A DNA stretch of 64,000 nucleotides from a virus (IMGVR_UViG_3300032291_003205:38224-102223), one strand, 5' to 3'. Shown: positions 32,233-43,856, counted from the stretch's first letter. The notes: generated from the letters alone by a model not told the origin. Program-made: numbers and translations.

Positions 32233-32317
32233 GCTGTTGTGGTGGAATGGTAGACACGAAGGACTTAAAATCCTTTGGGACGTAAGTCTCGTGCCGGTTC
32301 GAGTCCGGCCAGCAGTA
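32233..32317 (+). tRNA. tRNA-Leu(TAA)
   Basis: Cloverleaf; AAGGA-CTTAAAA-TCCTT; long variable arm; GGTTCGAGTCC. Confidence 0.93.
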
Positions 32318-32348
32318 CAAAAAATAAAAAATATATATTTATAAACAC

Positions 32349-32540
32349 ATGAAAAAATTATTTATTATCGCCGCTTTAGTTACTTTGGCTTCTTGTTCAA
32401 ACGAAACTACCTCTACTTCTACAGACACAACTTGTGTTGATTCAACCTGTTGTGATTCTTTAAATACAGATTCTCTTATTCAAAGTACAGAAGCACATGC
32501 TGATTCTTTGCATACAGAAATCCAAGAGTTGAAGAAATAA
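32349..32540 (+). CDS. Small lipoprotein
   Basis: MKKLFIIAALVTLASC lipobox; Thr/Asp-rich. Confidence 0.75.
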   Translation: MKKLFIIAALVTLASCSNETTSTSTDTTCVDSTCCDSLNTDSLIQSTEAHADSLHTEIQELKK

Positions 32541-32547
32541 TCTTCTT

Positions 32548-32620
32548 GCCCCCTTAGCTCAGTTGGTAGAGCTTCTGATTTGTAATCAGATGGTCGGCGG
32601 TTCGAGTCCGTCAGGTGGCT
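32548..32620 (+). tRNA. tRNA-Thr(TGT)
   Basis: TCTGA-TTTGTAA-TCAGA; one C-U acceptor mismatch. Confidence 0.9.
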
Positions 32621-32624
32621 CAAA

Positions 32625-32720
32625 GGTGGTAGTTAGACGAAAATGAAATTCCTGCTGTGATGTTAACTTAATCAGCATATTCAGAAGTAGAAATGAGTAA
32701 TCGCAAATTACTCGCCACCA
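32625..32720 (+). ncRNA. Unknown structured RNA with tRNA-like ends
   Basis: GGTGGT/GCCACC closing stem; GAGTAAT-CGCAA-ATTACTC hairpin; ends ACCA. Confidence 0.5.
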
Positions 32721-32725
32721 TATAG

Positions 32726-32796
32726 GGCGGATTAGTGTAATGGTAACACATAAGGCTCATAACCTTAAATTGGCAGTTCGAGTCTGTCGTCCGCAA
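32726..32796 (+). tRNA. tRNA-Met(CAT), initiator-like
   Basis: TAAGG-CTCATAA-CCTTA; 1:72 mismatch. Confidence 0.85.
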
Positions 32797-32797
32797 C

Positions 32798-32924
32798 AAA
32801 AGAAAAGTAGTGAAGCTGTAATTGAGAGGTAGAGTGTTTTAAATACTGAAAAAGGGTTAATAGTAGGTAGGCGTCACTCATTGCACTCAATCAGAAACCC
32901 TGAAAGACCCGAAGCTTTTCTTTT
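32798..32924 (+). ncRNA. Unknown pseudoknotted RNA
   Basis: 11-bp closing stem, internal stems and AGGGTT/AACCCT pairing. Confidence 0.5.
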
Positions 32925-32930
32925 AAAAAA

Positions 32931-33014
32931 TCCGGTGTTCGTGAGGGGGAAGCAACAAGAACGAAAACACTCTCATTAAATATGTTGCATGTGTAAGTAA
33001 CGGAACCTTACACA
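32931..33014 (+). ncRNA. Pseudoknot + hairpin RNA (copy A)
   Basis: GTGAGGG/CTCTCAT, GCAACA/TGTTGC, TGTGTAAG/CTTACACA. Confidence 0.5.
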
Positions 33015-33018
33015 AATT

Positions 33019-33105
33019 GGAAGTGATCCGGATGGATGAGGAGCTGCTCTTGAAAAGCAGTAGTACGTGATGAGCGTATTGTGAGTTCGAGTCTCACCGC
33101 TTCCG
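33019..33105 (+). tRNA. tRNA-Ser(TGA), atypical D arm
   Basis: CTGCT-CTTGAAA-AGCAG; long variable arm; G discriminator. Confidence 0.88.
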
Positions 33106-33116
33106 CAAACCTTAAA

Positions 33117-33213
33117 ACCGATTCGGGTTCGTGAACAAGGGAGGCCTGTTCTTCTCGTGCAAGAAAGAAATCACGTTAAATCTCCCCACGCTAGGTGGCA
33201 GCGGTGACCTAGC
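33117..33213 (+). ncRNA. Pseudoknot + hairpin RNA (copy B)
   Basis: CGTGA/TCACG, GGGAG/CTCCC, GCTAGGT/ACCTAGC. Confidence 0.5.
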
Positions 33214-33218
33214 ATTAT

Positions 33219-33289
33219 TACCTCCTCGTCTAATGGCAGGACAAGTGGTTTTGGTCCACTTAATCGAGGTTCGAATCCTTGGGAGGTAA
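33219..33289 (+). tRNA. tRNA-Gln(TTG)
   Basis: AGTGG-TTTTGGT-CCACT; acceptor TACCTCC/GGAGGTA. Confidence 0.9.
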
Positions 33290-33301
33290 CTAAAATTTAA
33301 T

Positions 33302-33332
33302 TTGGAATTATAAAATAAAAATATTATATTGA
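33302..33332 (+). promoter_or_regulatory. Promoter TTG-N20-TATATTGA (ATG 4 nt downstream)
   Basis: Repeated motif. Confidence 0.65.
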
Positions 33333-33336
33333 TACT

Positions 33337-33771
33337 ATGAATTTGACAAAAGCACTTAAGCACAAGAAAAAGCTTGTAAAACAAGCTGATGAATTTTATT
33401 CTCGTTTTTCTAATTACAATTCTTTTGAAGTTGGAACAACCCCATCTTATAACCCAGAAGAAATGTTTGAAGGATGGTTGAAAAAAACTGATGAGTTAGT
33501 TAGTTTAAAAGCAAAAATTCATCAAGCAAATGTACCCATTGCTGAAAAGATTTTTCGATTAGGGGAAATTAAAAATATAATTTCTCGTATGCGTGGACTT
33601 GACACTAAAGAAGGAAAAGTTCGTGATCGTTATTCAGTTAATGATAATGCTATTGAATATACATCATATGTAAATTTAGTTAGTAAAGATCTTCAAATTA
33701 AAAATTATGAAGAGGAATTAGAAAAACTTCAAGAAGAAATTGAGGCATTTAATGCTATCACAAAGATATAA
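33337..33771 (+). CDS. Coiled-coil protein, DIP1984 / DUF6847-like
   Basis: MNLTKAL...LKAKIHQAN...LQEEIEAFNAITKI matches the family pattern as recalled. Confidence 0.6.
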   Translation: MNLTKALKHKKKLVKQADEFYSRFSNYNSFEVGTTPSYNPEEMFEGWLKKTDELVSLKAKIHQANVPIAEKIFRLGEIKNIISRMRGLDTKEGKVRDRYSVNDNAIEYTSYVNLVSKDLQIKNYEEELEKLQEEIEAFNAITKI

Positions 33772-33958
33772 CCAATTTAAAGAGTAAAGGTGAATTAGTA
33801 GTGCTTAATTCTTCGGAATTATCAACCCTACAGATAAACATGATGCTTTGATACTGATATTGACGAATGCCTTAAGATTCAAAATTTAAAATTCAATATT
33901 AGGAAAACTCAAATCTCAAATCTTTTCAACGAAAATTTAACTTTACTCTACTTTGGTT
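33770..33958 (+). ncRNA. Unknown ncRNA with cUUCGg hairpin and periodic repeats
   Basis: Long closing stem; TAATTC-TTCG-GAATTA; TGAY and TCAA repeat tracts. Confidence 0.65.
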
Positions 33959-33963
33959 TGTTT

Positions 33964-34038
33964 GCTCGGTTCATCTATCGGTTAGGATGCCAGGTTTTCA
34001 TCCTGGAAAGAGGGGTTCGACTCCCCTACCGAGTACCA
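33964..34038 (+). tRNA. tRNA-Glu(TTC)
   Basis: CCAGG-TTTTCAT-CCTGG; encoded CCA. Confidence 0.93.
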
Positions 34039-34040
34039 TT

Positions 34041-34114
34041 GGACCCTTAGCTCAGATGGTCAGAGCGTCAGACTCATAATCTGGGGGTCGTAGGTTCAAA
34101 CCCTACAGGGTCCA
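34041..34114 (+). tRNA. tRNA-CAT (Ile2 or elongator Met)
   Basis: TCAGA-CTCATAA-TCTGG; acceptor GGACCCT/AGGGTCC. Confidence 0.9.
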
Positions 34115-34156
34115 CAAAATCGTTTTTATATTTTTTTCATATTTATAATTGTTCAT

Positions 34157-36049
34157 ATGAAAAATTTATTATTTACTCTCGGTTTGGGGTTATTATCTTT
34201 AACCTCCTTTGCCCAATCCTACACGACCTCTCCAGGCACAGGACATTGGGTAGTAGTTGACTCGGGCTATCAAGTAGGTACCTCAACAGCAGGTAATACT
34301 GTAGCTCCTCTTTATTTTCACAACACCTCAACTAGTGAGAAGATCACAGGTCTTCAATTTAGATTGTTTTATGATAATACAGCATTTACTGCTGTGGTTC
34401 CGTCGTTAAAAATATCTGCTACTGATCAATATTTGCAGTACGTAGATAATAAAACTAACGGTTATTTAACGGTTACTGTTGTCTATACTGGCACTAATTC
34501 AACCTTTAGCTACTCCGATGGTACAACGTTTGATTTAACGTTTACACACGCTTCTGCAGCTACTTGGAACACTTTAGACAGTATTAAAACCCTTAAAGTT
34601 ACAGGTGCTTTTGGTTTCTCAAACAAAGCAGCTACAAACTGGGGCAATGACACTACATTAGTCGTTTATTCTTATGGTGGTCGATTTAATCAAAAATTAC
34701 TTCGATTTGCCGCTAAGTTTAAAAACGTTACAGGTTCAGATGCTAAAAACTTATGGGTATCTTTAGAGAAAAAACCTAAATCAGGTGGTTCTTGGACTCA
34801 AGTAGCAACTGAAAAAACAAATAGTTCTGGTGTTGTTGTATTACGTAAGTTGTTAGATACAACTTATTGGGATGTTAGAATGACAGTTAAAGGAGATACA
34901 ATGACTCCTGGTAATGTTATTTCAACTGCTGATGCTCAAAAAGTTAATCAAGCTATTTTAGCTCAATACACTCCTGTGGGATTTGATTATTATACAATGG
35001 ATGTAAACGGACATACAGGTGATATTACTATTGCCGATGTTTATTCTGTTTATGGTCGTTTGGCTGGTAGGTTCTCTGCTTGGCCTAACTCACAAAAAGA
35101 TGTTTGGTTCTTTACTAAATCACAATACGATTCTATTAACGGGGCTTCTATAAACTATGTAACTTCTAAACCAGGTGTTAATAACTTTACATATACTATT
35201 AATGGTAAAGATTCTATTACTTATTGGGTAGCAGTTAAAGGTGATGCCAATGCTACAGGATTTAAGATGGCTCGTTTAACACCTATTAAAATTATTAACC
35301 AATCAAACGCTAAAAAATATATTATTGACAACACAGTTAAGTACGATAATGTAACTGAAACTATTGAAGTTAATATGCCTAAAGTTAAGGTTGATGATGG
35401 TAACTTAGTAAACGTACCTGTTAAAATGTTAACCAATGGTAAGCAATTAGGTGCTTTACAATTAGAATTAAAATACGATACAGCATTATTAGAGTTTAAG
35501 AAAATTGATTTATCTGAAAAAATGATGTATTGGACTTCTTATACTAACCCTGATAATGGAGTAGTTGCATTTGGTGCTGCTGATTTGACTAACAAAAACT
35601 TAGTCAATGATGGTGAGCAAGTATTTAATATCCAATTCTTTGCTAAAAAACCTCAAGACAGTTGGGCTACAGCAGCTATTTGGACAGGACCTAAATACGT
35701 TGGAGGTAATGATTCTCGTGATATGAATATTACCCCAGCTATGGGTATTGTTGAGGTTCGTAGAATTAAACAACCTATTGCTTTAGATGATTTAAGTGAT
35801 ATTATTGTGTTCCCAAATCCAAATGATGGTGAGGTTTGTGTTCAATTTAAAGTTAATAATGATTCACAAACTGAAATTATTGTAACAGATATGGTAGGTA
35901 GAAAAGTATTAGACGTATTAAATACTAAAATGCCTAGAGGAAGTTACAAATATTTAGTAAACCTAACTCCATTGTCTGATGGATTTTATTTAATGTCTAT
36001 TAAAACAGATACACAAATTTCAACCTCTAAAATAATTATAAATAAATAA
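34157..36049 (+). CDS. Secreted cohesin-dockerin-cohesin protein with T9SS type A sorting domain
   Basis: Signal peptide; ITGLQFRLFYD and LGALQLELKYDTALLEF cohesin-like; ISTADA...DVNGHTGDITIADV dockerin-like; VFPNP...GFYL...KIIINK. Confidence 0.7.
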   Translation: MKNLLFTLGLGLLSLTSFAQSYTTSPGTGHWVVVDSGYQVGTSTAGNTVAPLYFHNTSTSEKITGLQFRLFYDNTAFTAVVPSLKISATDQYLQYVDNKTNGYLTVTVVYTGTNSTFSYSDGTTFDLTFTHASAATWNTLDSIKTLKVTGAFGFSNKAATNWGNDTTLVVYSYGGRFNQKLLRFAAKFKNVTGSDAKNLWVSLEKKPKSGGSWTQVATEKTNSSGVVVLRKLLDTTYWDVRMTVKGDTMTPGNVISTADAQKVNQAILAQYTPVGFDYYTMDVNGHTGDITIADVYSVYGRLAGRFSAWPNSQKDVWFFTKSQYDSINGASINYVTSKPGVNNFTYTINGKDSITYWVAVKGDANATGFKMARLTPIKIINQSNAKKYIIDNTVKYDNVTETIEVNMPKVKVDDGNLVNVPVKMLTNGKQLGALQLELKYDTALLEFKKIDLSEKMMYWTSYTNPDNGVVAFGAADLTNKNLVNDGEQVFNIQFFAKKPQDSWATAAIWTGPKYVGGNDSRDMNITPAMGIVEVRRIKQPIALDDLSDIIVFPNPNDGEVCVQFKVNNDSQTEIIVTDMVGRKVLDVLNTKMPRGSYKYLVNLTPLSDGFYLMSIKTDTQISTSKIIINK

Positions 36050-36050
36050 C

Positions 36051-36374
36051 ATGTCAGAAGAAAAAGAAGAGAGTGTAATGTCAGTAACCAAAAAAGCAAT
36101 TATTGGTGCTATCACTACAGCTGTTACAGCCGGCGGTGCCTGGTTTGCAACCCACTTAGGCGGTGGTGAAGAGTCTAAAGAAGAAGCTAAAACAGAACAA
36201 GCTAGTCCTGCGGCAGCAGCGCCTGTTGTAATTAATGTTCAACAAAATCAAGAAAATAAACAACAAGTTAAGCAAGGTGGAGGTACAAACACAATCATTA
36301 GAGAACGTGTAACTGAAAAACCTGCCGCTGCTCCTGCTACAAAACCTGAACCTAAAGAAGAAGATCCATGGTAA
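36051..36374 (+). CDS. Small membrane-anchored protein
   Basis: Single TM followed by Ala/Pro/Glu-rich tail. Confidence 0.65.
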   Translation: MSEEKEESVMSVTKKAIIGAITTAVTAGGAWFATHLGGGEESKEEAKTEQASPAAAAPVVINVQQNQENKQQVKQGGGTNTIIRERVTEKPAAAPATKPEPKEEDPW

Positions 36375-37054
36375 AAAATATTTTAGTTGCTTTATTATTA
36401 GTTATTTTAGTTGGATGTGGTTCAATGTCTACTACAACTGAAAGAGATGTAATTGAAAAAGCAGACATTTCTACTGTATCTGGTTACACTGATTCTATCA
36501 AGAAAACAGTTCAAGTAGTTAATGTTGATATGACTAAACTTTTTGCCCTATACCCAGCACTTCAAGAAAAGAATGTTGGATTGGGTTTTGCTGAATCTGT
36601 ATTAGACTATTTAGATGAAACGAATCGCTTTATATTTACTGAAGAGAAGACTGAGATCAAGGAGAGGATGGTAACTCAATTTAAGGCCTCTAAAAAAGGT
36701 GTTTTTGAAGAACCAATTGATGGTAAAGGAAAGATTAAAGCAGCTCAATATTTTGTTTATGTCACTGTAGCTGATTTTGCAGTAGATGAAGATGAAACAG
36801 TTCAAAAAGGAAAATCAACTGTAGTTGTAACAACGTTTGTTCGTTTACAAGTAAGATTTGTTGATGCTAAAACAGGACAAATCTATATAGGTTCTGGTGA
36901 GGGTGAGTCACAAAAAGTAGGTGAATCATTCCTTAAAAATCTTGATATGAAGTTTTCTCAAAGTACCGTAGGTAAAGCAACTCGTAAGTCATTAGAAACA
37001 GCGTGTACCAAAGTAATTGGAAGCTTAATCAATAATGGTATCTTTACAAAATAA
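36368..37054 (+). CDS. CsgG/HfaB-like outer-membrane lipoprotein
   Basis: LVGC lipobox; LDETNRF...E, VRLQVRFVDAKTGQI..GSGEG pattern. Confidence 0.7.
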   Translation: MVKNILVALLLVILVGCGSMSTTTERDVIEKADISTVSGYTDSIKKTVQVVNVDMTKLFALYPALQEKNVGLGFAESVLDYLDETNRFIFTEEKTEIKERMVTQFKASKKGVFEEPIDGKGKIKAAQYFVYVTVADFAVDEDETVQKGKSTVVVTTFVRLQVRFVDAKTGQIYIGSGEGESQKVGESFLKNLDMKFSQSTVGKATRKSLETACTKVIGSLINNGIFTK

Positions 37055-38453
37055 AATATTATTATTTTTTATGATAATTGGACTGCCTCTCTTGGGGCAG
37101 TCCTTTACTTATAGTTATATAGATCCGTGTACTCGCACGACAAAATTTATTAACGCCGACATGAGTGCTCCTGTTGTTATCGCGTATTATGGACAGGTAA
37201 AAACGTTTACTTACGCACAATTAAGTGACGGTACGTTTGATGCTTGGATTAATAATATTTATACCCAGTACAAAACAACCTCACCTTGTCAGGGGGTAGT
37301 TACTACTACAACAACTACAACATCCACTAATACAGTTTCAAACCTTATAGGTAATGTAACTAGTTTAGTAAGTTTAGATTTTTCCTCTGTAACAGGAGGT
37401 GTATCTGGGGGTGTTGGAACAAATGTAGGAGGAACTACATCTTCAGGAACAGGAAGTGTTAAAACCGATAAAAAAGATGGTAATAATAATTCTAATAATA
37501 GTACTTCTAGTGATAATAGTGGATCTACTTCTAACGAGGGAGGAAACCAAACGGGAGAAAATGGAGGAAATCCACCAGAAAATCAAGGCGGGTCTAATGG
37601 ATCCGGAGGAGGAACAGTAGGTGGAAACTCTAGTTCAGGCAATAGTTCTAATTCTTCTAGCGGTTCTGGCTCTGGTTCTGGGTCCGGTGCTAGTAATGAT
37701 CAACCAAAAACTGAAACAGAAAAACCATCAGACCAAAAAGTAGAAGATACTAAAACTGAAACACAAAAATCCTCTTCTAGTGCTACAGCAAAAGCAGCTG
37801 GTAAAGGTAAAGTTGAGACAGCTAAACCAGCTATCCTAATGACAGGAGATATAGTTGGGGTTCAAACAAGATCAGATGGAACACAAGATGCTAGAGGTAC
37901 TATGTCTTTTACTAAAGTAAAAGGAGATGGTACAGCATCAATAGGTTTTTCAGCTGATTATATGGTTAATGCTAAAATAGGTAATATTTCTGCTGTACGT
38001 TCTTGGATTGGTTCTAACAATAAAGGAAATAAACATATTAATGTTATTTCAGATGGATTAAGTATCATGCCAGATGCCTTATCTAATACTCTATTATTTG
38101 TTAGAGTAAATTCAATTAAAAATTTTACTGCTTTATATGGTGGTGCTGCAACTTATGGAAAATTATATGGTGAGGAAATGATTTCTACAATCATTATAGG
38201 TGGTTTTATGTATAAAGGAAAAGTTACTAAAGCATTAGATGCTACAGTTATTATGGCCGGTATCTATTCTCCTTACTCAAAATATTATACAGAATCATTA
38301 TTTAAAGCAAGACCAATTATAGTACCATTTTTAAATTTAAATTATAAATTAACTAAAACATTTGGGATTGGGTTAACTGGAGGAGGTACTTATATAGCTG
38401 GGAAAGATGTTTTAAATTTTCAAATTTTGATGGGAGCAAAAATGAAGATATGA
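37035..38453 (+). CDS. Secreted protein: Gly/Ser/Asn linker + C-terminal beta-barrel-like domain
   Basis: Signal peptide; alternating amphipathic strands at C-terminus. Confidence 0.55.
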   Translation: MVSLQNKILLFFMIIGLPLLGQSFTYSYIDPCTRTTKFINADMSAPVVIAYYGQVKTFTYAQLSDGTFDAWINNIYTQYKTTSPCQGVVTTTTTTTSTNTVSNLIGNVTSLVSLDFSSVTGGVSGGVGTNVGGTTSSGTGSVKTDKKDGNNNSNNSTSSDNSGSTSNEGGNQTGENGGNPPENQGGSNGSGGGTVGGNSSSGNSSNSSSGSGSGSGSGASNDQPKTETEKPSDQKVEDTKTETQKSSSSATAKAAGKGKVETAKPAILMTGDIVGVQTRSDGTQDARGTMSFTKVKGDGTASIGFSADYMVNAKIGNISAVRSWIGSNNKGNKHINVISDGLSIMPDALSNTLLFVRVNSIKNFTALYGGAATYGKLYGEEMISTIIIGGFMYKGKVTKALDATVIMAGIYSPYSKYYTESLFKARPIIVPFLNLNYKLTKTFGIGLTGGGTYIAGKDVLNFQILMGAKMKI

Positions 38454-39652
38454 GGTGGATTATTATATTTTTACTATTTACTAATACTTTATTAGGCCAA
38501 TTCACCTACTCAGGTTACCTCTATAATGCAGATGGGTCAGGAGCAAATAATGTTCCTGTAAAACTTTATAAAAGCACAGCAGGTGCTACTACTAAATCAG
38601 GTACTTTAGCTAAAATAACATCAGGTATTCCTTCCGATAGAGGAAGAGGAACCTCAGTACTTTTTTCTACTGTTAATACAGATGAAACGTCTGTAGCTAT
38701 TACATTTCCTTCTGGATTTAGTCCTTCTTATGCAGGTACTACTTATTCATCATGTCACGTAAATGCTAACTCTTGGTTTACTTTTGGAACAAGTTCTAGC
38801 TCTGGTTTTAATGGAAATGCAACTAGTCCTAACCAACCAACAATCCATATCGGTTCAGTAGATAATGGCTCTACAGACAACAACGTTTCTTATGTTTCAA
38901 CTGAAAGTTACACAGATGCAACTTACGGAGACGTGTTTAGAGTAAGATACGAGGGTAACTGCAAATATAATCAGACAGGAGTAAACTATACCTGGGATTT
39001 GTATTTTATTAAAAACCAAGCTTCAAAGCAGATAGTGGTTTGGAGAACATTTACTGCAGATGGTTCTAACCAGGAGGTGATGGGTATATCTACAGGTAGT
39101 GCTTGGTTAGCAAGTACATTAGTCACTTCAGGTTCCTTCTCGGGTACTAGCTGGGAGATAAATACATCCTCAAGTACTACAACATCCTCCACTTCATTAG
39201 ATGCTACCGCAAATACGAACTCATCAGGATATTATTCTTTTTCAAGAACTACAGTAGCCGGTGACCAATTTACAATTCAACTTGATGCACCAACAAGAAT
39301 ACAGTCCTATACTACAACCGATATTCAAGCTGTTTCAAATATTATTTTAGATAAAACATCTATTACAGGTCTTTCTTACCATATGTTTGATGTTAATGAT
39401 GATACAAGAATTACAGTAGCCGATAAGTATTATGTAGCTGCTAGAAAAGTAGGTAGATTTTCTAAATGGAGAATAGCACCTGATGTTAGGTTATTTACTA
39501 CAGCCGAATATAATTCTATAAAAGCATCTACAAGTAATGTTAGAGCCACTTATCCAGGTGTTTCTTCTATTACTACCTCTACATTAACCTCAGGCGGAAC
39601 ACTTAGTTATTACTTAATAGCACCTGGTTATTCAGGTTCTGTAACTTATTGA
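38450..39652 (+). CDS. Secreted protein with dockerin-like domain (paralogous to middle of 34157 protein)
   Basis: YHMFDVNDDTRITVAD...GRFSKW...DVRLFT. Confidence 0.6.
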   Translation: MRWIIIFLLFTNTLLGQFTYSGYLYNADGSGANNVPVKLYKSTAGATTKSGTLAKITSGIPSDRGRGTSVLFSTVNTDETSVAITFPSGFSPSYAGTTYSSCHVNANSWFTFGTSSSSGFNGNATSPNQPTIHIGSVDNGSTDNNVSYVSTESYTDATYGDVFRVRYEGNCKYNQTGVNYTWDLYFIKNQASKQIVVWRTFTADGSNQEVMGISTGSAWLASTLVTSGSFSGTSWEINTSSSTTTSSTSLDATANTNSSGYYSFSRTTVAGDQFTIQLDAPTRIQSYTTTDIQAVSNIILDKTSITGLSYHMFDVNDDTRITVADKYYVAARKVGRFSKWRIAPDVRLFTTAEYNSIKASTSNVRATYPGVSSITTSTLTSGGTLSYYLIAPGYSGSVTY

Positions 39653-39664
39653 TATTTATAAAAG

Positions 39665-40114
39665 ATGTTGAATTTTTTATTTCCTATATTATTAGCTTTA
39701 ACACCTTCTGATACTACAAAGGTAAATGTTCAAGTAAACAATGTTCAACATATCCAAAAAATTGGAGATAGAGATGTTACTTTTGGTGTTAAAGAAACTG
39801 TAGAAGAATTATTAATTGGAAAAGGATATACCCCTGTTGACTCAGGAGTAGCCTTTATAACCCAAGTAAGTATAGATAGTATTTACTCACCTCAACAAAT
39901 AGTAAACATAATGGGTCTACAATGGTTAAAGAAAGACTATTTTGTAGAAACTAGTATATGTATTGGAAATAGTTGTTTTAAATCAGTTGGTGTTAGAAAA
40001 ACCTTTATTTTCGCGGCATTTTTAAATGTTGAAAATAATGAAGTTCCATTAAACCGAAAGGCGTTCTCGAAAGCGTTACAAGAAAGTTTAACAAAAACAA
40101 TAAAACAACTATAA
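39665..40114 (+). CDS. Secreted hypothetical protein
   Basis: Signal peptide; TATTTAT motif upstream. Confidence 0.6.
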   Translation: MLNFLFPILLALTPSDTTKVNVQVNNVQHIQKIGDRDVTFGVKETVEELLIGKGYTPVDSGVAFITQVSIDSIYSPQQIVNIMGLQWLKKDYFVETSICIGNSCFKSVGVRKTFIFAAFLNVENNEVPLNRKAFSKALQESLTKTIKQL

Positions 40115-40115
40115 T

Positions 40116-40379
40116 ATGAAAAATTTCCTTAAACAATTATTCGACGACAACAACTCAATCAATGAGAAAGCATTAGTAGGTTTTATAGCTTTCTTTATGC
40201 TTTGCATTGCTCTTATTGTAGACCTAGTAACAGGCTACATGGGAACTGCTTTAGTAATTAATGAATTTATCTTTGATGGATTTATGGTAATCATTTTAGG
40301 TTCATTTGGTATCGCTTCGGTTGATAAATTTTTGAATAAAAAAGACAAACACGAAGAAGATAAAGATATAGAAGGATAA
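40116..40379 (+). CDS. Two-TM membrane protein, putative holin
   Basis: Two TMs, charged tail, next to endolysin. Confidence 0.55.
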   Translation: MKNFLKQLFDDNNSINEKALVGFIAFFMLCIALIVDLVTGYMGTALVINEFIFDGFMVIILGSFGIASVDKFLNKKDKHEEDKDIEG

Positions 40380-40792
40380 TGAAGTCTACGTTACTAGTTT
40401 TACTATTATCATTAACCACAACCTGTGCTTTTGTTTGTAGCTATTTCGGTGGATTAGCTATAGACAATAGTGAGCAGTATTTGGCCGTAGTGGCGGTCGC
40501 TTTTATGGATGGGTTTTTTGGTATAGTTGCTGGTACGAAGAAAGAAGGTTTTAAAACCTATAAAGCATTAAAAGTATTAAAAACAACATTTACATGGTTA
40601 GTTATATTAACAGTAATATTAATGGTTGAAATAGGATTCCCAGGTACGTCTTGGCTCTCAGAAACCATTATAATGCCTTTTATAATATTCCAAGTAATTA
40701 GTGCATTAAAAAATGCTTCGTCTGCTGGTTTTATAAAATATTCTGTATTAAATACAATTTTAGAAAAAATTGACAAACATAAAGATAAATAA
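40379..40792 (+). CDS. Putative holin
   Basis: Multi-TM, D..G, S.LKN pattern like holin family 4; upstream of endolysin. Confidence 0.65.
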   Translation: MKSTLLVLLLSLTTTCAFVCSYFGGLAIDNSEQYLAVVAVAFMDGFFGIVAGTKKEGFKTYKALKVLKTTFTWLVILTVILMVEIGFPGTSWLSETIIMPFIIFQVISALKNASSAGFIKYSVLNTILEKIDKHKDK

Positions 40793-40794
40793 AT

Positions 40795-41619
40795 ATGCTA
40801 TTAAAAAAAGGTGACAACAATGAACAGGTAAAACAACTCCAAATTAAATTAGGGGTTGATCCTGTGGGTAACTTTGGTCCTAAAACCGAAGAGGCAGTTA
40901 AAAAATATCAAGCGGCTAATGGTTTAGTTGCTGATGGTATAGTAGGAGATGGAACTTGGAATAAAATTATGGGTACAGCACCTATTGCTACTCCTGCTCC
41001 AGCCGTTATTCCTACTAGTTCATTTAAATTAGATAAATTAAAAGGACATATTCCAGATTCAGTAATTGCTGCTATTCCTGATACTGCTGCTAAGTTTAAT
41101 ATTATAAATGTATTAAGATTGGCTCATTTTCTTGCCCAAGCAGGACATGAATCAGGACAATTTAAAGCAACTTCAGAAAACCTAAATTATAGTTCAAAAG
41201 GATTATTAGGTATTTTCCCAAGATACTTTACTCCCGCTTTAGCAGAATCTTATGCTCGCCAACCTCAAAAAATCGCTAACAAAGTTTATGGTGGTAGAAT
41301 GGGTAATGGGGCTGAAGCCACTGGAGATGGATTTAAATTCAGAGGTAGAGGATATATTCAATTGACTGGTAAAGATAATTATACCCAATTTGATAAAACT
41401 GTACCCGAAGATATTTTAGCTAATCCTGATTTAGTATCAGGTAAATATGCTTTAATGTCTGCTGCTTGGTTTTTTGATAAGAATAAACTTTGGGGTATTT
41501 GTGATAAAGGAGCTGATCAAGGAACCGTAACAGCTGTTACAAAAAGAGTAAATGGTGGAACTATTGGTTTACCAGATCGTATTAAACATTTTAACGAATA
41601 TTATAATTTATTAAAATAA
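40795..41619 (+). CDS. Endolysin: peptidoglycan-binding domain + GH19 catalytic domain
   Basis: DGIVGDGTW; AHFLAQAGHESG, ENLNYS, FRGRGYIQLTGKDNY, VTKRVNGG. Confidence 0.92.
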   Translation: MLLKKGDNNEQVKQLQIKLGVDPVGNFGPKTEEAVKKYQAANGLVADGIVGDGTWNKIMGTAPIATPAPAVIPTSSFKLDKLKGHIPDSVIAAIPDTAAKFNIINVLRLAHFLAQAGHESGQFKATSENLNYSSKGLLGIFPRYFTPALAESYARQPQKIANKVYGGRMGNGAEATGDGFKFRGRGYIQLTGKDNYTQFDKTVPEDILANPDLVSGKYALMSAAWFFDKNKLWGICDKGADQGTVTAVTKRVNGGTIGLPDRIKHFNEYYNLLK

Positions 41620-41996
41620 TGAGTGAATTTCAATTAAAAGAAGGACAAGGGTATATTTACGTAGGTGAATACTTTCATAAATTTGGAGGTAAAGTACCTA
41701 CAGAAAAGAAAATAGGTAAAACTGATGACCTATTAAAAATACCTCAAATAGATGATTATGCCTTTAGTTTAGACTTTACAGCAGCAGATATTTATCTTGT
41801 TGAAAATGTAGAGGTTCTTTATGCTGCTTTAACATCAGTATTAAGTCATGATCTTATTAAAGAGGATTGGTTTGCAGATAGTGATGGGGATTTAAAAGAA
41901 AGAGTAGCTAGCTTTATGAAAGCTTTTGGTTATATTGAGATTTGTGATGTTGATGGTGATGGAATACCGGATCATCTAGACGACGTTATAGGTTAA
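41619..41996 (+). CDS. Hypothetical protein (GIY-YIG-like N-terminus, DxDGDG C-terminus)
   Basis: GYIYVGE...KKIGKT; DVDGDGIPDHLD. Confidence 0.5.
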   Translation: MSEFQLKEGQGYIYVGEYFHKFGGKVPTEKKIGKTDDLLKIPQIDDYAFSLDFTAADIYLVENVEVLYAALTSVLSHDLIKEDWFADSDGDLKERVASFMKAFGYIEICDVDGDGIPDHLDDVIG

Positions 41997-42792: not shown

Positions 42793-43578
42793 ATGAATTT
42801 AACAGCAGAACAAATCCAACAAAATTGGTTGCGAATGGTGGGCTTTATTGAGGATCACATTTCATCACCTCGTAAAGAAAAATTAGTAGAATTTTATGAA
42901 AAATTTAGTGAGCGTTTAATGTTGATGCCTGCTGCTCACAAAAAAGAATACCACAATGCTTTTCCTGGAGGTTATGTAGAACATGTTAATCGAGTTATTA
43001 CTTGTGCTCTTCACCTCCATGATTTGTGGGCTCAAATGGGTGCTGATATTTCAACATATACTAAAGAAGAATTAGTATTTTCGGCCCTGAATCATGATCT
43101 AGGTAAAATGGGAGATGAGGAAAATGAATCATATATCCCCCAGACCGATAATTGGAGACGTGAAAAATTAGGTGAGGATTATATGTTTAATACTAAAGTT
43201 CCATTTGCTTCTGTTCCCGACCGTGGTTTATTTTTACTCCAATCACATGGTATCCAGTATTCATTTAATGAAATGATTACTATTCAAACACATGATGGTT
43301 TATATGATGAGGCAAATAAAAAATATTTAATGACTTATATGCCAGAACAAAAACCACGTACAGCATTACCTTTTATTGTACATCAAGCGGATTTAATGGC
43401 TGCTAGAATTGAGTTTGAAAGAGAATGGTTACCTAAATTGCAAGGTAACGTGGAGACCAAAAAGAAACCATTTACATTGGGTAATAATAAATCAGCTCCA
43501 ACAACTTCAGCCGCTAAATCTAAAGCATTAGGTAGCGTAAAAAGTGAAGGACTTAAAAACCTATTAGACAACTTATGA
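42793..43578 (+). CDS. HD-domain phosphohydrolase
   Basis: HNAFPGGYVEH, NHDLGK, HDG, HQAD. Confidence 0.85.
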   Translation: MNLTAEQIQQNWLRMVGFIEDHISSPRKEKLVEFYEKFSERLMLMPAAHKKEYHNAFPGGYVEHVNRVITCALHLHDLWAQMGADISTYTKEELVFSALNHDLGKMGDEENESYIPQTDNWRREKLGEDYMFNTKVPFASVPDRGLFLLQSHGIQYSFNEMITIQTHDGLYDEANKKYLMTYMPEQKPRTALPFIVHQADLMAARIEFEREWLPKLQGNVETKKKPFTLGNNKSAPTTSAAKSKALGSVKSEGLKNLLDNL

Positions 43579-43856
43579 TATTAACAATTGTATTACTCTC
43601 AATGTTGGTCGTGACTCTTGGATTCACAACCTATAATCTTCTCAAGAAAAATGAGAAACAAGAAGATATCCTAGCAGGTTATATGACCTACCTAAACAAA
43701 ATTTCAGACACTATTGAGATGTCAGAAAAGAAAATGATGGAAGTAGATGCTAAAGGTAGTTTTAAATCGGATGATGAGGTAGGATTTTTCTTTGAACAAA
43801 TTAAAACAATTCAAACTGCATTAAATTCTTTTGTTATTAAAAACATCACCAAATAA
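43575..43856 (+). CDS. Small membrane-anchored protein
   Basis: N-terminal TM; FKSDDEVGFFF. Confidence 0.6.
   Translation: MILTIVLLSMLVVTLGFTTYNLLKKNEKQEDILAGYMTYLNKISDTIEMSEKKMMEVDAKGSFKSDDEVGFFFEQIKTIQTALNSFVIKNITK

Follow-up and report, generated by a model that had tools for sequence, protein, structure and literature searches.

A conserved seven-gene cassette encoding predicted envelope proteins, among them a T9SS-tagged cohesin protein and CsgG-fold proteins, in large phages of Bacteroidota

We describe a cassette of seven genes, ORF1 to ORF7 (for open reading frame), in a 64,000-nucleotide stretch of phage DNA (IMGVR_UViG_3300032291_003205, positions 38224-102223; hereafter the window, from whose first letter all coordinates are counted). 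The cassette is best explained as a conserved, phage-specific module of seven exported proteins in the envelope of infected Bacteroidota. As to what the module does, the reading we prefer, held tentatively at a probability of about 0.4, is of a display module that is produced late in infection, is anchored in the envelope and presents binding proteins docked to cohesins. The window comes from a 102-kb single-contig phage record with a GC content of about 32% and every gene on one strand; this large phage probably infects Flavobacterium-type bacteria.

The first-pass annotation of this DNA had reported six consecutive exported or membrane proteins, and the six ORFs are indeed there on the + strand (ORF1 to ORF6, 34157 to 40114). 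All cassette products bear a signal peptide, a lipobox or a transmembrane (TM) helix. Ten genes in all (34157-41996), including a holin (40379-40792, +) and an endolysin with PG_binding_1 and GH19 domains (40795-41619, +), both identified by Pfam and PHROG matches, follow one another with intergenic gaps of -20 to +12 nt; therefore the cassette, the holin, the endolysin and one more gene constitute a single packed block. Seven tRNA genes (32233-34115) lie upstream of the cassette, a T4-type baseplate wedge protein is encoded downstream, and the baseplate module begins about 4 kb beyond the cassette. This last proximity is what favors the view that the products are ordinary virion or virion-assembly proteins. 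Tailed-phage virions assemble in the cytoplasm, and we consider that view extremely improbable because a Sec signal, a lipobox, a TM helix or a type IX secretion system (T9SS) sorting domain takes every product out of that compartment; moreover, no PHROG structural family matches any of them. As the first-pass annotation had it, these are exported host-envelope proteins and not virion parts. PHROGs in general offered nothing informative for the six proteins, the sole match, a weak one (E 0.0086), linking ORF3 with an unnamed family, and the cassette proteins had no PADLOC match. The earlier description proves right in almost all particulars; what the present analysis adds to it is the CsgG fold of ORF6, the membership of ORF7, the exchangeable heads of the ORF5 family, the absence of CsgG's membrane hairpins from ORF3 and the packing of ten genes.

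A chance run of ORFs is excluded by the recurrence of the same gene order, 1-2-3-4-(5)-6, in about 160 viral loci of IMG/VR, over which ORF3 identity falls from 98% to as low as 35-45%. No gene of the block is conserved better than ORF3, whose median identity over 80 loci is 87% (versus 79% for the endolysin), and the cassette is under strong constraint. Among 50,697 GenBank phage records, cultured relatives are limited to the immuto phages (160 kb), which infect Flavobacterium sp. LMO8; gp013-gp019 of Flavobacterium phage immuto correspond to the cassette at 24-54% identity. In immuto (L138 / NC_055915, 11598-13422) the ORF1 homologue is split over two genes, gp014 having the first cohesin and the dockerin-like module and gp015 the second cohesin and the C-terminal domain, and the block is preceded by gp013, a lectin-dockerin homologue of ORF5 annotated as a C-type lectin. 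One ORF3-family pattern, scanned against 185,579 species genomes, hit 11 loci: three consist of cassette plus endolysin on contigs of Bacteroidota metagenome-assembled genomes, one short contig holds part of the cassette, and the rest are CsgG-like paralogues. Relatives of the ORF4 barrel family were present in two of the 401 Flavobacteriaceae genomes searched. The cassette is thus essentially confined to phage DNA, and the comparison of synteny in phages and hosts, suggested at first pass as a check, came out in favor of the cassette, its order being kept in phages and rare in host genomes. The window's baseplate protein is found in four of the five long relatives tested (46-52% identity), so most carriers represent one broad lineage of large myophages. 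In a metagenome protein database the ORF3 family comprises 700 clusters and the ORF1 family 1410, on contigs of up to about 300 kb; a seven-gene exported module is therefore common in environmental Bacteroidota phages. In the literature, no description of the seven-gene combination was found.

ORF5 is less fixed in place, being found sometimes at the opposite end of the block and sometimes not at all among relatives. Together with the split of ORF1 in immuto, such behavior would suit a collection of independent accessory genes (morons) for exported proteins that are adjacent without joining in a complex. Against this, the core order is kept across very wide divergence, with translational coupling and overlaps between genes; a docking-type module is common to ORF1 and ORF5, and ORF3 and ORF6 are paralogous; and the set occurs nearly only in phage DNA and always together. 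We therefore think it improbable that the genes are mere neighbors.

ORF1 (34157..36049, +, 630 aa), whose features were recognized with Pfam and NCBIfam, begins with a Sec signal. Against Pfam Cohesin (PF00963, cutoff 24.1 bits) the whole protein scores 46.4 bits with the best stretch at residues 403-518, which gives the second cohesin (nt 35363-35710, +); the first (nt 34289-34624, +) emerged when the N-terminal piece was scanned alone (residues 45-156, 24.6 bits against the same cutoff). Between them lies a beta-sandwich with a dockerin-like module (nt 34709-35272, +), delimited by module alignment. The C-terminus is a T9SS type A domain (nt 35807-36040, +), matching Por_Secre_tail (PF18962) over residues 551-628 of 630 (45.8 bits, cutoff 27) and the TIGR04183 type A sorting domain (42.5 bits, cutoff 23), and residues 548-629 align with PDB chain 8glk_D (75 residues, named Endonuclease I; E 0.0024). 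Apart from a weak match at this C-terminal domain and a marginal lectin match, the single-sequence PDB search returned nothing for ORF1. The arrangement first proposed for this scaffold-like protein, cohesin-like, dockerin-like, cohesin-like and T9SS C-terminal domain, is thus upheld by the Pfam and NCBIfam calls, and among the 120 listed of 1410 metagenomic homologues nearly all carry Cohesin and/or Por_Secre_tail. A sorting domain at the extreme C-terminus combined with an N-terminal Sec signal is the pattern of T9SS type A cargo, so export of ORF1 by the host's T9SS is possible. ORF1 is the sole cassette protein with a recognizable route over the outer membrane, and it is predicted to reach the surface via T9SS.

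ORF5 (38450..39652, +, 400 aa) has a signal peptide, a variable head and a conserved tail of beta-sandwich plus dockerin-like part (39137-39649, +), as defined by module comparison. The module of about 150-190 residues is common to this tail and the middle of ORF1 (cross-family phmmer E 1e-10 to 1e-18) and consists of a transthyretin/CarboxypepD_reg-like sandwich followed by a loop-helix, DVNxxxxITISD. This second loop, with its helix, is conserved; the first is degenerate, only a helix with TxxDAxxxxxxxL being left. Dockerin_1 is matched at E<0.1 by 12 of 40 module homologues, the best of them at 4.8e-5, and five PDB dockerins align at these positions to the profile of the module family with weak scores (E 0.06-1). 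The closest match to ORF5 covers just 35% of the protein, that is, the tail (80 close loci), and throughout its relatives the tail is conserved and the head exchanged, recognizable heads being C-type lectin, LamG and PA14. The exchangeable lectin heads hint at binding of host surface glycans. The earlier observation that this second protein lacks a C-terminal sorting domain is correct, in that ORF5 has no T9SS domain.

ORF3 (36368..37054, +, 228 aa) is a lipoprotein (lipobox LVGC) with a CsgG fold, assigned from profile, Foldseek and VIA comparisons. Alone it had no Pfam match and its single-sequence PDB search was empty; the evidence comes from its family, for which 153 representatives were retrieved among 1.8 billion clusters, and from its model. 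Pfam CsgG (PF03783) is matched by 15 of 37 aligned family members, and the family profile finds E. coli CsgG at E 3.3e-5. The AlphaFold 2 (AF2) model, with a predicted local distance difference test (pLDDT) score of 82, is closest to CsgG (Foldseek E 3e-7; by VIA, Z 12.7 with a root-mean-square deviation of 3.8 A over 159 residues), followed by PelC (Z 10.0), FlgT, LptE (Z 8.7) and GNA1162. ORF3 therefore shows the homology, the periplasmic alpha/beta fold and the lipobox by which CsgG family members are recognized. The two amphipathic hairpins that each CsgG subunit contributes to its 36-stranded membrane barrel, on the other hand, were not seen in either the sequence or the monomer model: the TM1-equivalent hairpin is six residues shorter than in E. 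coli CsgG and has a charged tip (DEDETVQKGK), and the TM2 region, which fails to align with CsgG, is a short polar stretch throughout the 37 family members. An outer-membrane channel is doubtful because these hairpins are missing, and a pore is probably not what ORF3 forms: the data support the CsgG fold, not the CsgG pore. Of the CsgG-like lipoprotein announced by the first-pass annotation, then, the lipobox and the fold stand and the channel is in doubt. ORF3 is predicted to sit at a membrane as a lipoprotein, and on our own reading, which is not a tool result, no acidic surface-export motif follows the lipobox cysteine. In distant cellular or metagenomic relatives of ORF3 (P0175, P0180, P0199, P0240, P0243, P0265 and P0266) the CsgG-like domain occurs in fusions, the partner being a caspase (Peptidase_C14), a Ser/Thr protein kinase, or FlgT_C plus an outer-membrane barrel.

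ORF6 (39665..40114, +, 149 aa), first listed simply as a small secreted protein, is exported as stated and lacks a lipobox; profile-profile comparison adds a CsgG-type fold, as hhalign of the ORF6 and ORF3 families gives a probability of 97.1% (E 6.3e-11, 126 columns). By this comparison ORF6 is a predicted second, shorter CsgG-fold protein and a paralogue of ORF3, and not CsgE or CsgF. No Pfam, NCBIfam or PHROG match to the curli partners (csgA/B/E/F) was found in ORF1-ORF7. From their sequences, ORF3, ORF5 and ORF6 are all predicted to reside in the periplasm or at the outer membrane's inner face.

ORF4 (37035..38453, +, 472 aa) was examined by family alignment, AF2, Foldseek and VIA, and has turned out to be what had been described as a linker plus barrel-like protein. 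After a signal peptide come an N-domain of about 90 aa with two invariant Cys (37101-37373, +), a disordered Ser/Gly/Asn linker of 147 residues (37377-37817, +), and a predicted 12-stranded outer-membrane beta-barrel (37830-38444, +). The low-complexity linker varies among relatives from almost none to several hundred residues. In the model the C-terminal domain forms 12 antiparallel strands (pLDDT 80-90), and its Foldseek and VIA matches are nearly all membrane beta-barrels, almost all of them from the bacterial outer membrane: CymA (Z 16.9), NalP (Z 16.0), OmpG (Z 15.4) and PelB (Z 12.5) by VIA, and further FapF, KdgM, PorV and the autotransporter translocators EspP, AIDA-I and Hbp, several autotransporter barrels scoring Z 12-14. 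The C-terminus of the family has a hydrophobic L/F/I pattern. The N-domain profile had no PDB match, Pfam Autotransporter did not match ORF4, and ESM Atlas returned only sub-threshold leads, to outer-membrane barrel families at 0.89.

A CsgG-fold lipoprotein encoded beside a barrel might suggest a phage-made secretion route of the type VIII, FapF or PelBC-like kind, through which ORF5, the ORF4 N-domain (in autotransporter fashion) or another phage product would leave the periplasm. In support of this one can cite CsgG as the best structural match of ORF3, the FapF, PelB and autotransporter translocators (NalP foremost) among the matches of the ORF4 barrel, the fusion of a CsgG domain with an outer-membrane barrel domain in the distant relative P0243, and the fact that ORF5 reaches the periplasm and has no T9SS signal. 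The absence of the amphipathic membrane hairpins in the ORF3 family argues against it, as do the lack of CsgA-, B-, E- or F-like proteins and of a Pfam Autotransporter match; the lumen of a 12-stranded barrel admits unfolded chains only, and the helix at residues 84-113 is placed by AF2 at a pLDDT near 63. We regard an export conduit as quite unlikely.

Location signals predict that ORF2 and ORF7 reside in the inner membrane. ORF2 (36051..36374, +, 107 aa), whose gene overlaps ORF3 by 7 nt, was earlier noted as a TM protein, and rightly so: it consists of an acidic cytoplasmic head, a single TM helix and a Pro/Ala/Glu/Lys-rich periplasmic tail ending in a conserved Pro-Trp. In an alignment of 31 homologues the acidic head, the TM helix and two short tail motifs are kept, as is the terminal Pro-Trp in most. 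ORF7 (40116..40379, +, 87 aa), a two-TM inner-membrane protein identified from cassette synteny and alignment, is the probable seventh member. In relatives it takes up a position at either cassette end or between genes 2 and 3, and it remains within the cassette even where the endolysin is about 45 kb distant. The idea of a stator-like motor for ORF7 was dropped, the alignment showing that the acidic residues of its TM helices are not universal.

Taken as an assembly, the parts suggest the display module that we favor. The kin of ORF3 are lipoproteins forming rings or plugs with outer-membrane barrels, and the ORF4 barrel is encoded next to it; therefore, ORF3, probably as a ring, could form an outer-membrane platform with ORF6 and the ORF4 barrel, in a pairing modelled on PelC with PelB or LptE with LptD. 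The extended tail of ORF2 would tie this platform to the inner membrane, and ORF5 would dock onto the cohesins of ORF1, the output being a cohesin scaffold bearing dockerin-tailed, exchangeable binding proteins, produced together with the lysis proteins. If adhesive, such a display might cover the glycan receptors of the dying host cell and of its debris and so spare progeny from being wasted, or it might hold or capture neighboring host cells. A multi-protein assembly is plausible, and the surface structure first proposed finds support in part, the export of its components being retained; since ORF1 is the sole member with a known outward route, the assembly looks trans-envelope and not purely surface. 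A bolder form, to which we give only a small chance, would be a T9SS-dependent, cellulosome-like surface lattice that abundant phages of aquatic Bacteroidota have the host build on a phage-made outer-membrane platform, with exchangeable lectins that glue the dying cell to neighboring hosts or mask its receptors; if true, phages would here construct an envelope machine of a new class, one shaping the spread of infection in dilute waters.

Several points weigh against the display module. The cutoff of Dockerin_1 (PF00404, 22.9 bits) is not reached by ORF5 (12.7 bits) or by its tail alone (14.3), and ORF1 has no match; thus, of the shared dockerin-like block recognized at first pass, the sharing between ORF1 and ORF5 holds, and the dockerin call falls under the Pfam threshold. 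The head of the window's ORF5 has no assignable or lectin fold by Pfam, PDB search or ESM Atlas, the last yielding a sub-threshold lead only (NIDO at 0.81) and the single-sequence PDB search of ORF5 being empty, and the protein, which has no T9SS signal, is without a known route over the outer membrane. Furthermore, in a clade of loci with the order 6, ORF1-like, 2, 7, 3, endolysin, 4 (L150, L151, L162-L165 and L169), ORF5 was not detected, and the two ORF1-like proteins scanned have a C-terminal cohesin and no T9SS domain (Pfam, E up to 0.001). We infer the interactions and the outer-membrane route of ORF5, as well as the timing, late expression being deduced because of gene packing alone. 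Finally, the frequent linkage to lysis genes fits a role in lysis equally well.

Such a role is the main rival to the display module. As a lysis accessory, ORF2 and ORF3, with ORF4, ORF6 and ORF7, would link the membranes, break or permeabilize the outer membrane after the endolysin has acted, or time lysis, in the manner of a spanin analogue. The cassette is packed with the holin and the endolysin. Of the 84 well-flanked loci, whose flanks extend 3 kb or more to each side, 52 have a homologue of the GH19 endolysin no farther than 3 kb away (median 305 nt); it takes five arrangements, being upstream or downstream, on either strand, or between genes 3 and 4 within the cassette itself. A lysis-timing role has also been suggested for phage CsgG (PMC9004378). 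The ORF2/ORF3 pair resembles spanins in its topology, its 7-nt overlap and its adjacency to holin and endolysin; only two lipobox ORFs exist in the 102-kb genome, ORF3 being one, and the surroundings of the lysis genes showed no canonical spanin pair. Set against this, no recognized endolysin is nearby in the remaining 32 of the 84 loci, the endolysin of a 207-kb relative is some 45 kb from the cassette, and a complete relative (G405, the L131 record, 196,980 bp with direct terminal repeats) has no GH19 endolysin homologue anywhere, so another lysis enzyme is needed there. The linkage is thus frequent and not obligatory, and the placement of the cassette beside lysis genes, remarked on at first pass, is true here and in those 52 loci and is not universal. 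In addition, no PHROG spanin or lysis family matches the six proteins, the ORF2 tail is Pro/Ala-rich, of low complexity and not coiled-coil, and ORF3 as a 228-aa lipoprotein, 210 aa of it globular, is unlike o-spanins. A T9SS-exported two-cohesin protein and swappable lectin heads would be left unexplained. On balance, a lysis accessory seems to us unlikely, if the foremost of the alternatives.

The second lipobox ORF of the genome (32349-32540, 63 aa, lipobox LASC) encodes a Cys-rich lipoprotein between the tRNA-Leu and tRNA-Thr genes and had no PADLOC match; its product could be a small o-spanin-like or exclusion lipoprotein. Another ORF (43575-43856, 93 aa), 2 kb downstream of the endolysin, has a TM helix at its N-terminus and is otherwise charged and helical in appearance, an i-spanin-like topology, with no lipoprotein partner adjoining.

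Published precedents cover parts of the cassette only, namely phage T9SS cargo and phage CsgG/CsgF. Pelagimyophages and the Methylophilales phage Melnitz carry CsgG/CsgF clusters without curlin genes, for which cell aggregation ('sibling capture') or lysis timing has been proposed (PMC7029224, PMC9004378). The cassette shares with them a phage-borne CsgG-family outer-membrane lipoprotein, the absence of curlin genes and an origin in aquatic myophages. It differs in having no CsgF and a very distant ORF3 (no Pfam match of its own) without pore hairpins, in its Bacteroidota hosts, and in adding a second CsgG-fold protein, a 12-stranded barrel, an inner-membrane tether, and T9SS cohesin and dockerin-tailed proteins. 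Phage T9SS cargo with variable heads has been described once, in the flexible islands of 'Cryophage', where it includes a PA14 protein and varies between phage variants (Bellas et al. 2020, PMC7468147). Here as there, a type A sorting domain is found on a phage gene and export by the host's T9SS is presumed; whereas the 'Cryophage' cargoes are single genes (glycoside hydrolases, PA14), ORF1 is a two-cohesin scaffold in a seven-gene module, and the variable lectin heads are on a partner protein without a T9SS signal.

The cassette resembles cellulosomes and non-cellulosomal cohesin-dockerin proteins in that a scaffold-like, anchored protein bears Pfam cohesins and its partner combines a functional head that can be exchanged with a dockerin-like Ca-loop/helix module. 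Unlike there, the dockerin-like module is divergent and below threshold, with a degenerate first loop, docking is putative, the heads are lectin-type instead of enzymes, anchoring would be via T9SS and not via sortase or an S-layer homology (SLH) domain, and the scaffold itself carries a dockerin-like module. With PelC-PelB, LptE-LptD and CsgG the cassette has in common the lipoprotein fold of ORF3, encoded beside the ORF4 barrel, but ORF3 has no sequence-level PelC or LptE membership, the block contains no polysaccharide or lipopolysaccharide genes, and the barrel, with 12 strands, is smaller than PelB or LptD. What recalls two-component spanins is the overlap of a lipoprotein gene with the gene for an inner-membrane protein that has a periplasmic tail, both adjoining holin and endolysin; the ORF2 tail that is not coiled-coil, the large globular ORF3, the lack of a PHROG spanin match and the non-universal lysis linkage set the cassette apart. 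It joins phage T9SS cargo, CsgG-type proteins, cohesin-dockerin logic and swappable lectin heads, a hint that infected cells have their envelope re-dressed by phages. An adhesive role would be relevant to the way phages encounter hosts in dilute water, and a lytic one would make up for the missing spanins in these phages. With Flavobacterium phage immuto as a cultured carrier, its role is testable.

Two nucleic acid elements accompany the cassette. Directly after tRNA-Met, 5-7 nt before the ORF1 ATG, we read from the sequence a promoter-like element, TATTTATAATTG (34140..34151, +), which contains TATAAT as well as a sequence close to the Bacteroidota -7 box. The TATTTAT motif that had been noticed ahead of the operon is present at 34140-34146, overlapping TATAAT/TATAATTG, 10 nt ahead of the ATG. 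No temporal class is claimed from these motifs because the 17-nt pattern around TATTTAT showed no enrichment within the window. The second element is an mRNA hairpin, GGACTGCC-loop-GGCAGTCC (37080..37103, +), with a 10-bp stem (dG -18.9) and followed by TTTACTT, which sits 26 nt past the ORF3 stop, within the signal-peptide codons of ORF4. Many distant loci have a hairpin of different sequence at an equal offset, and other distant loci have none. The hairpin is kept in all 17 of the aligning close loci, where two haplotypes differ by a compensatory synonymous pair (CTG/CAG versus TTG/CAA), and it may act as a partial terminator or stability element setting the ratio of ORF1-3 to the later genes.

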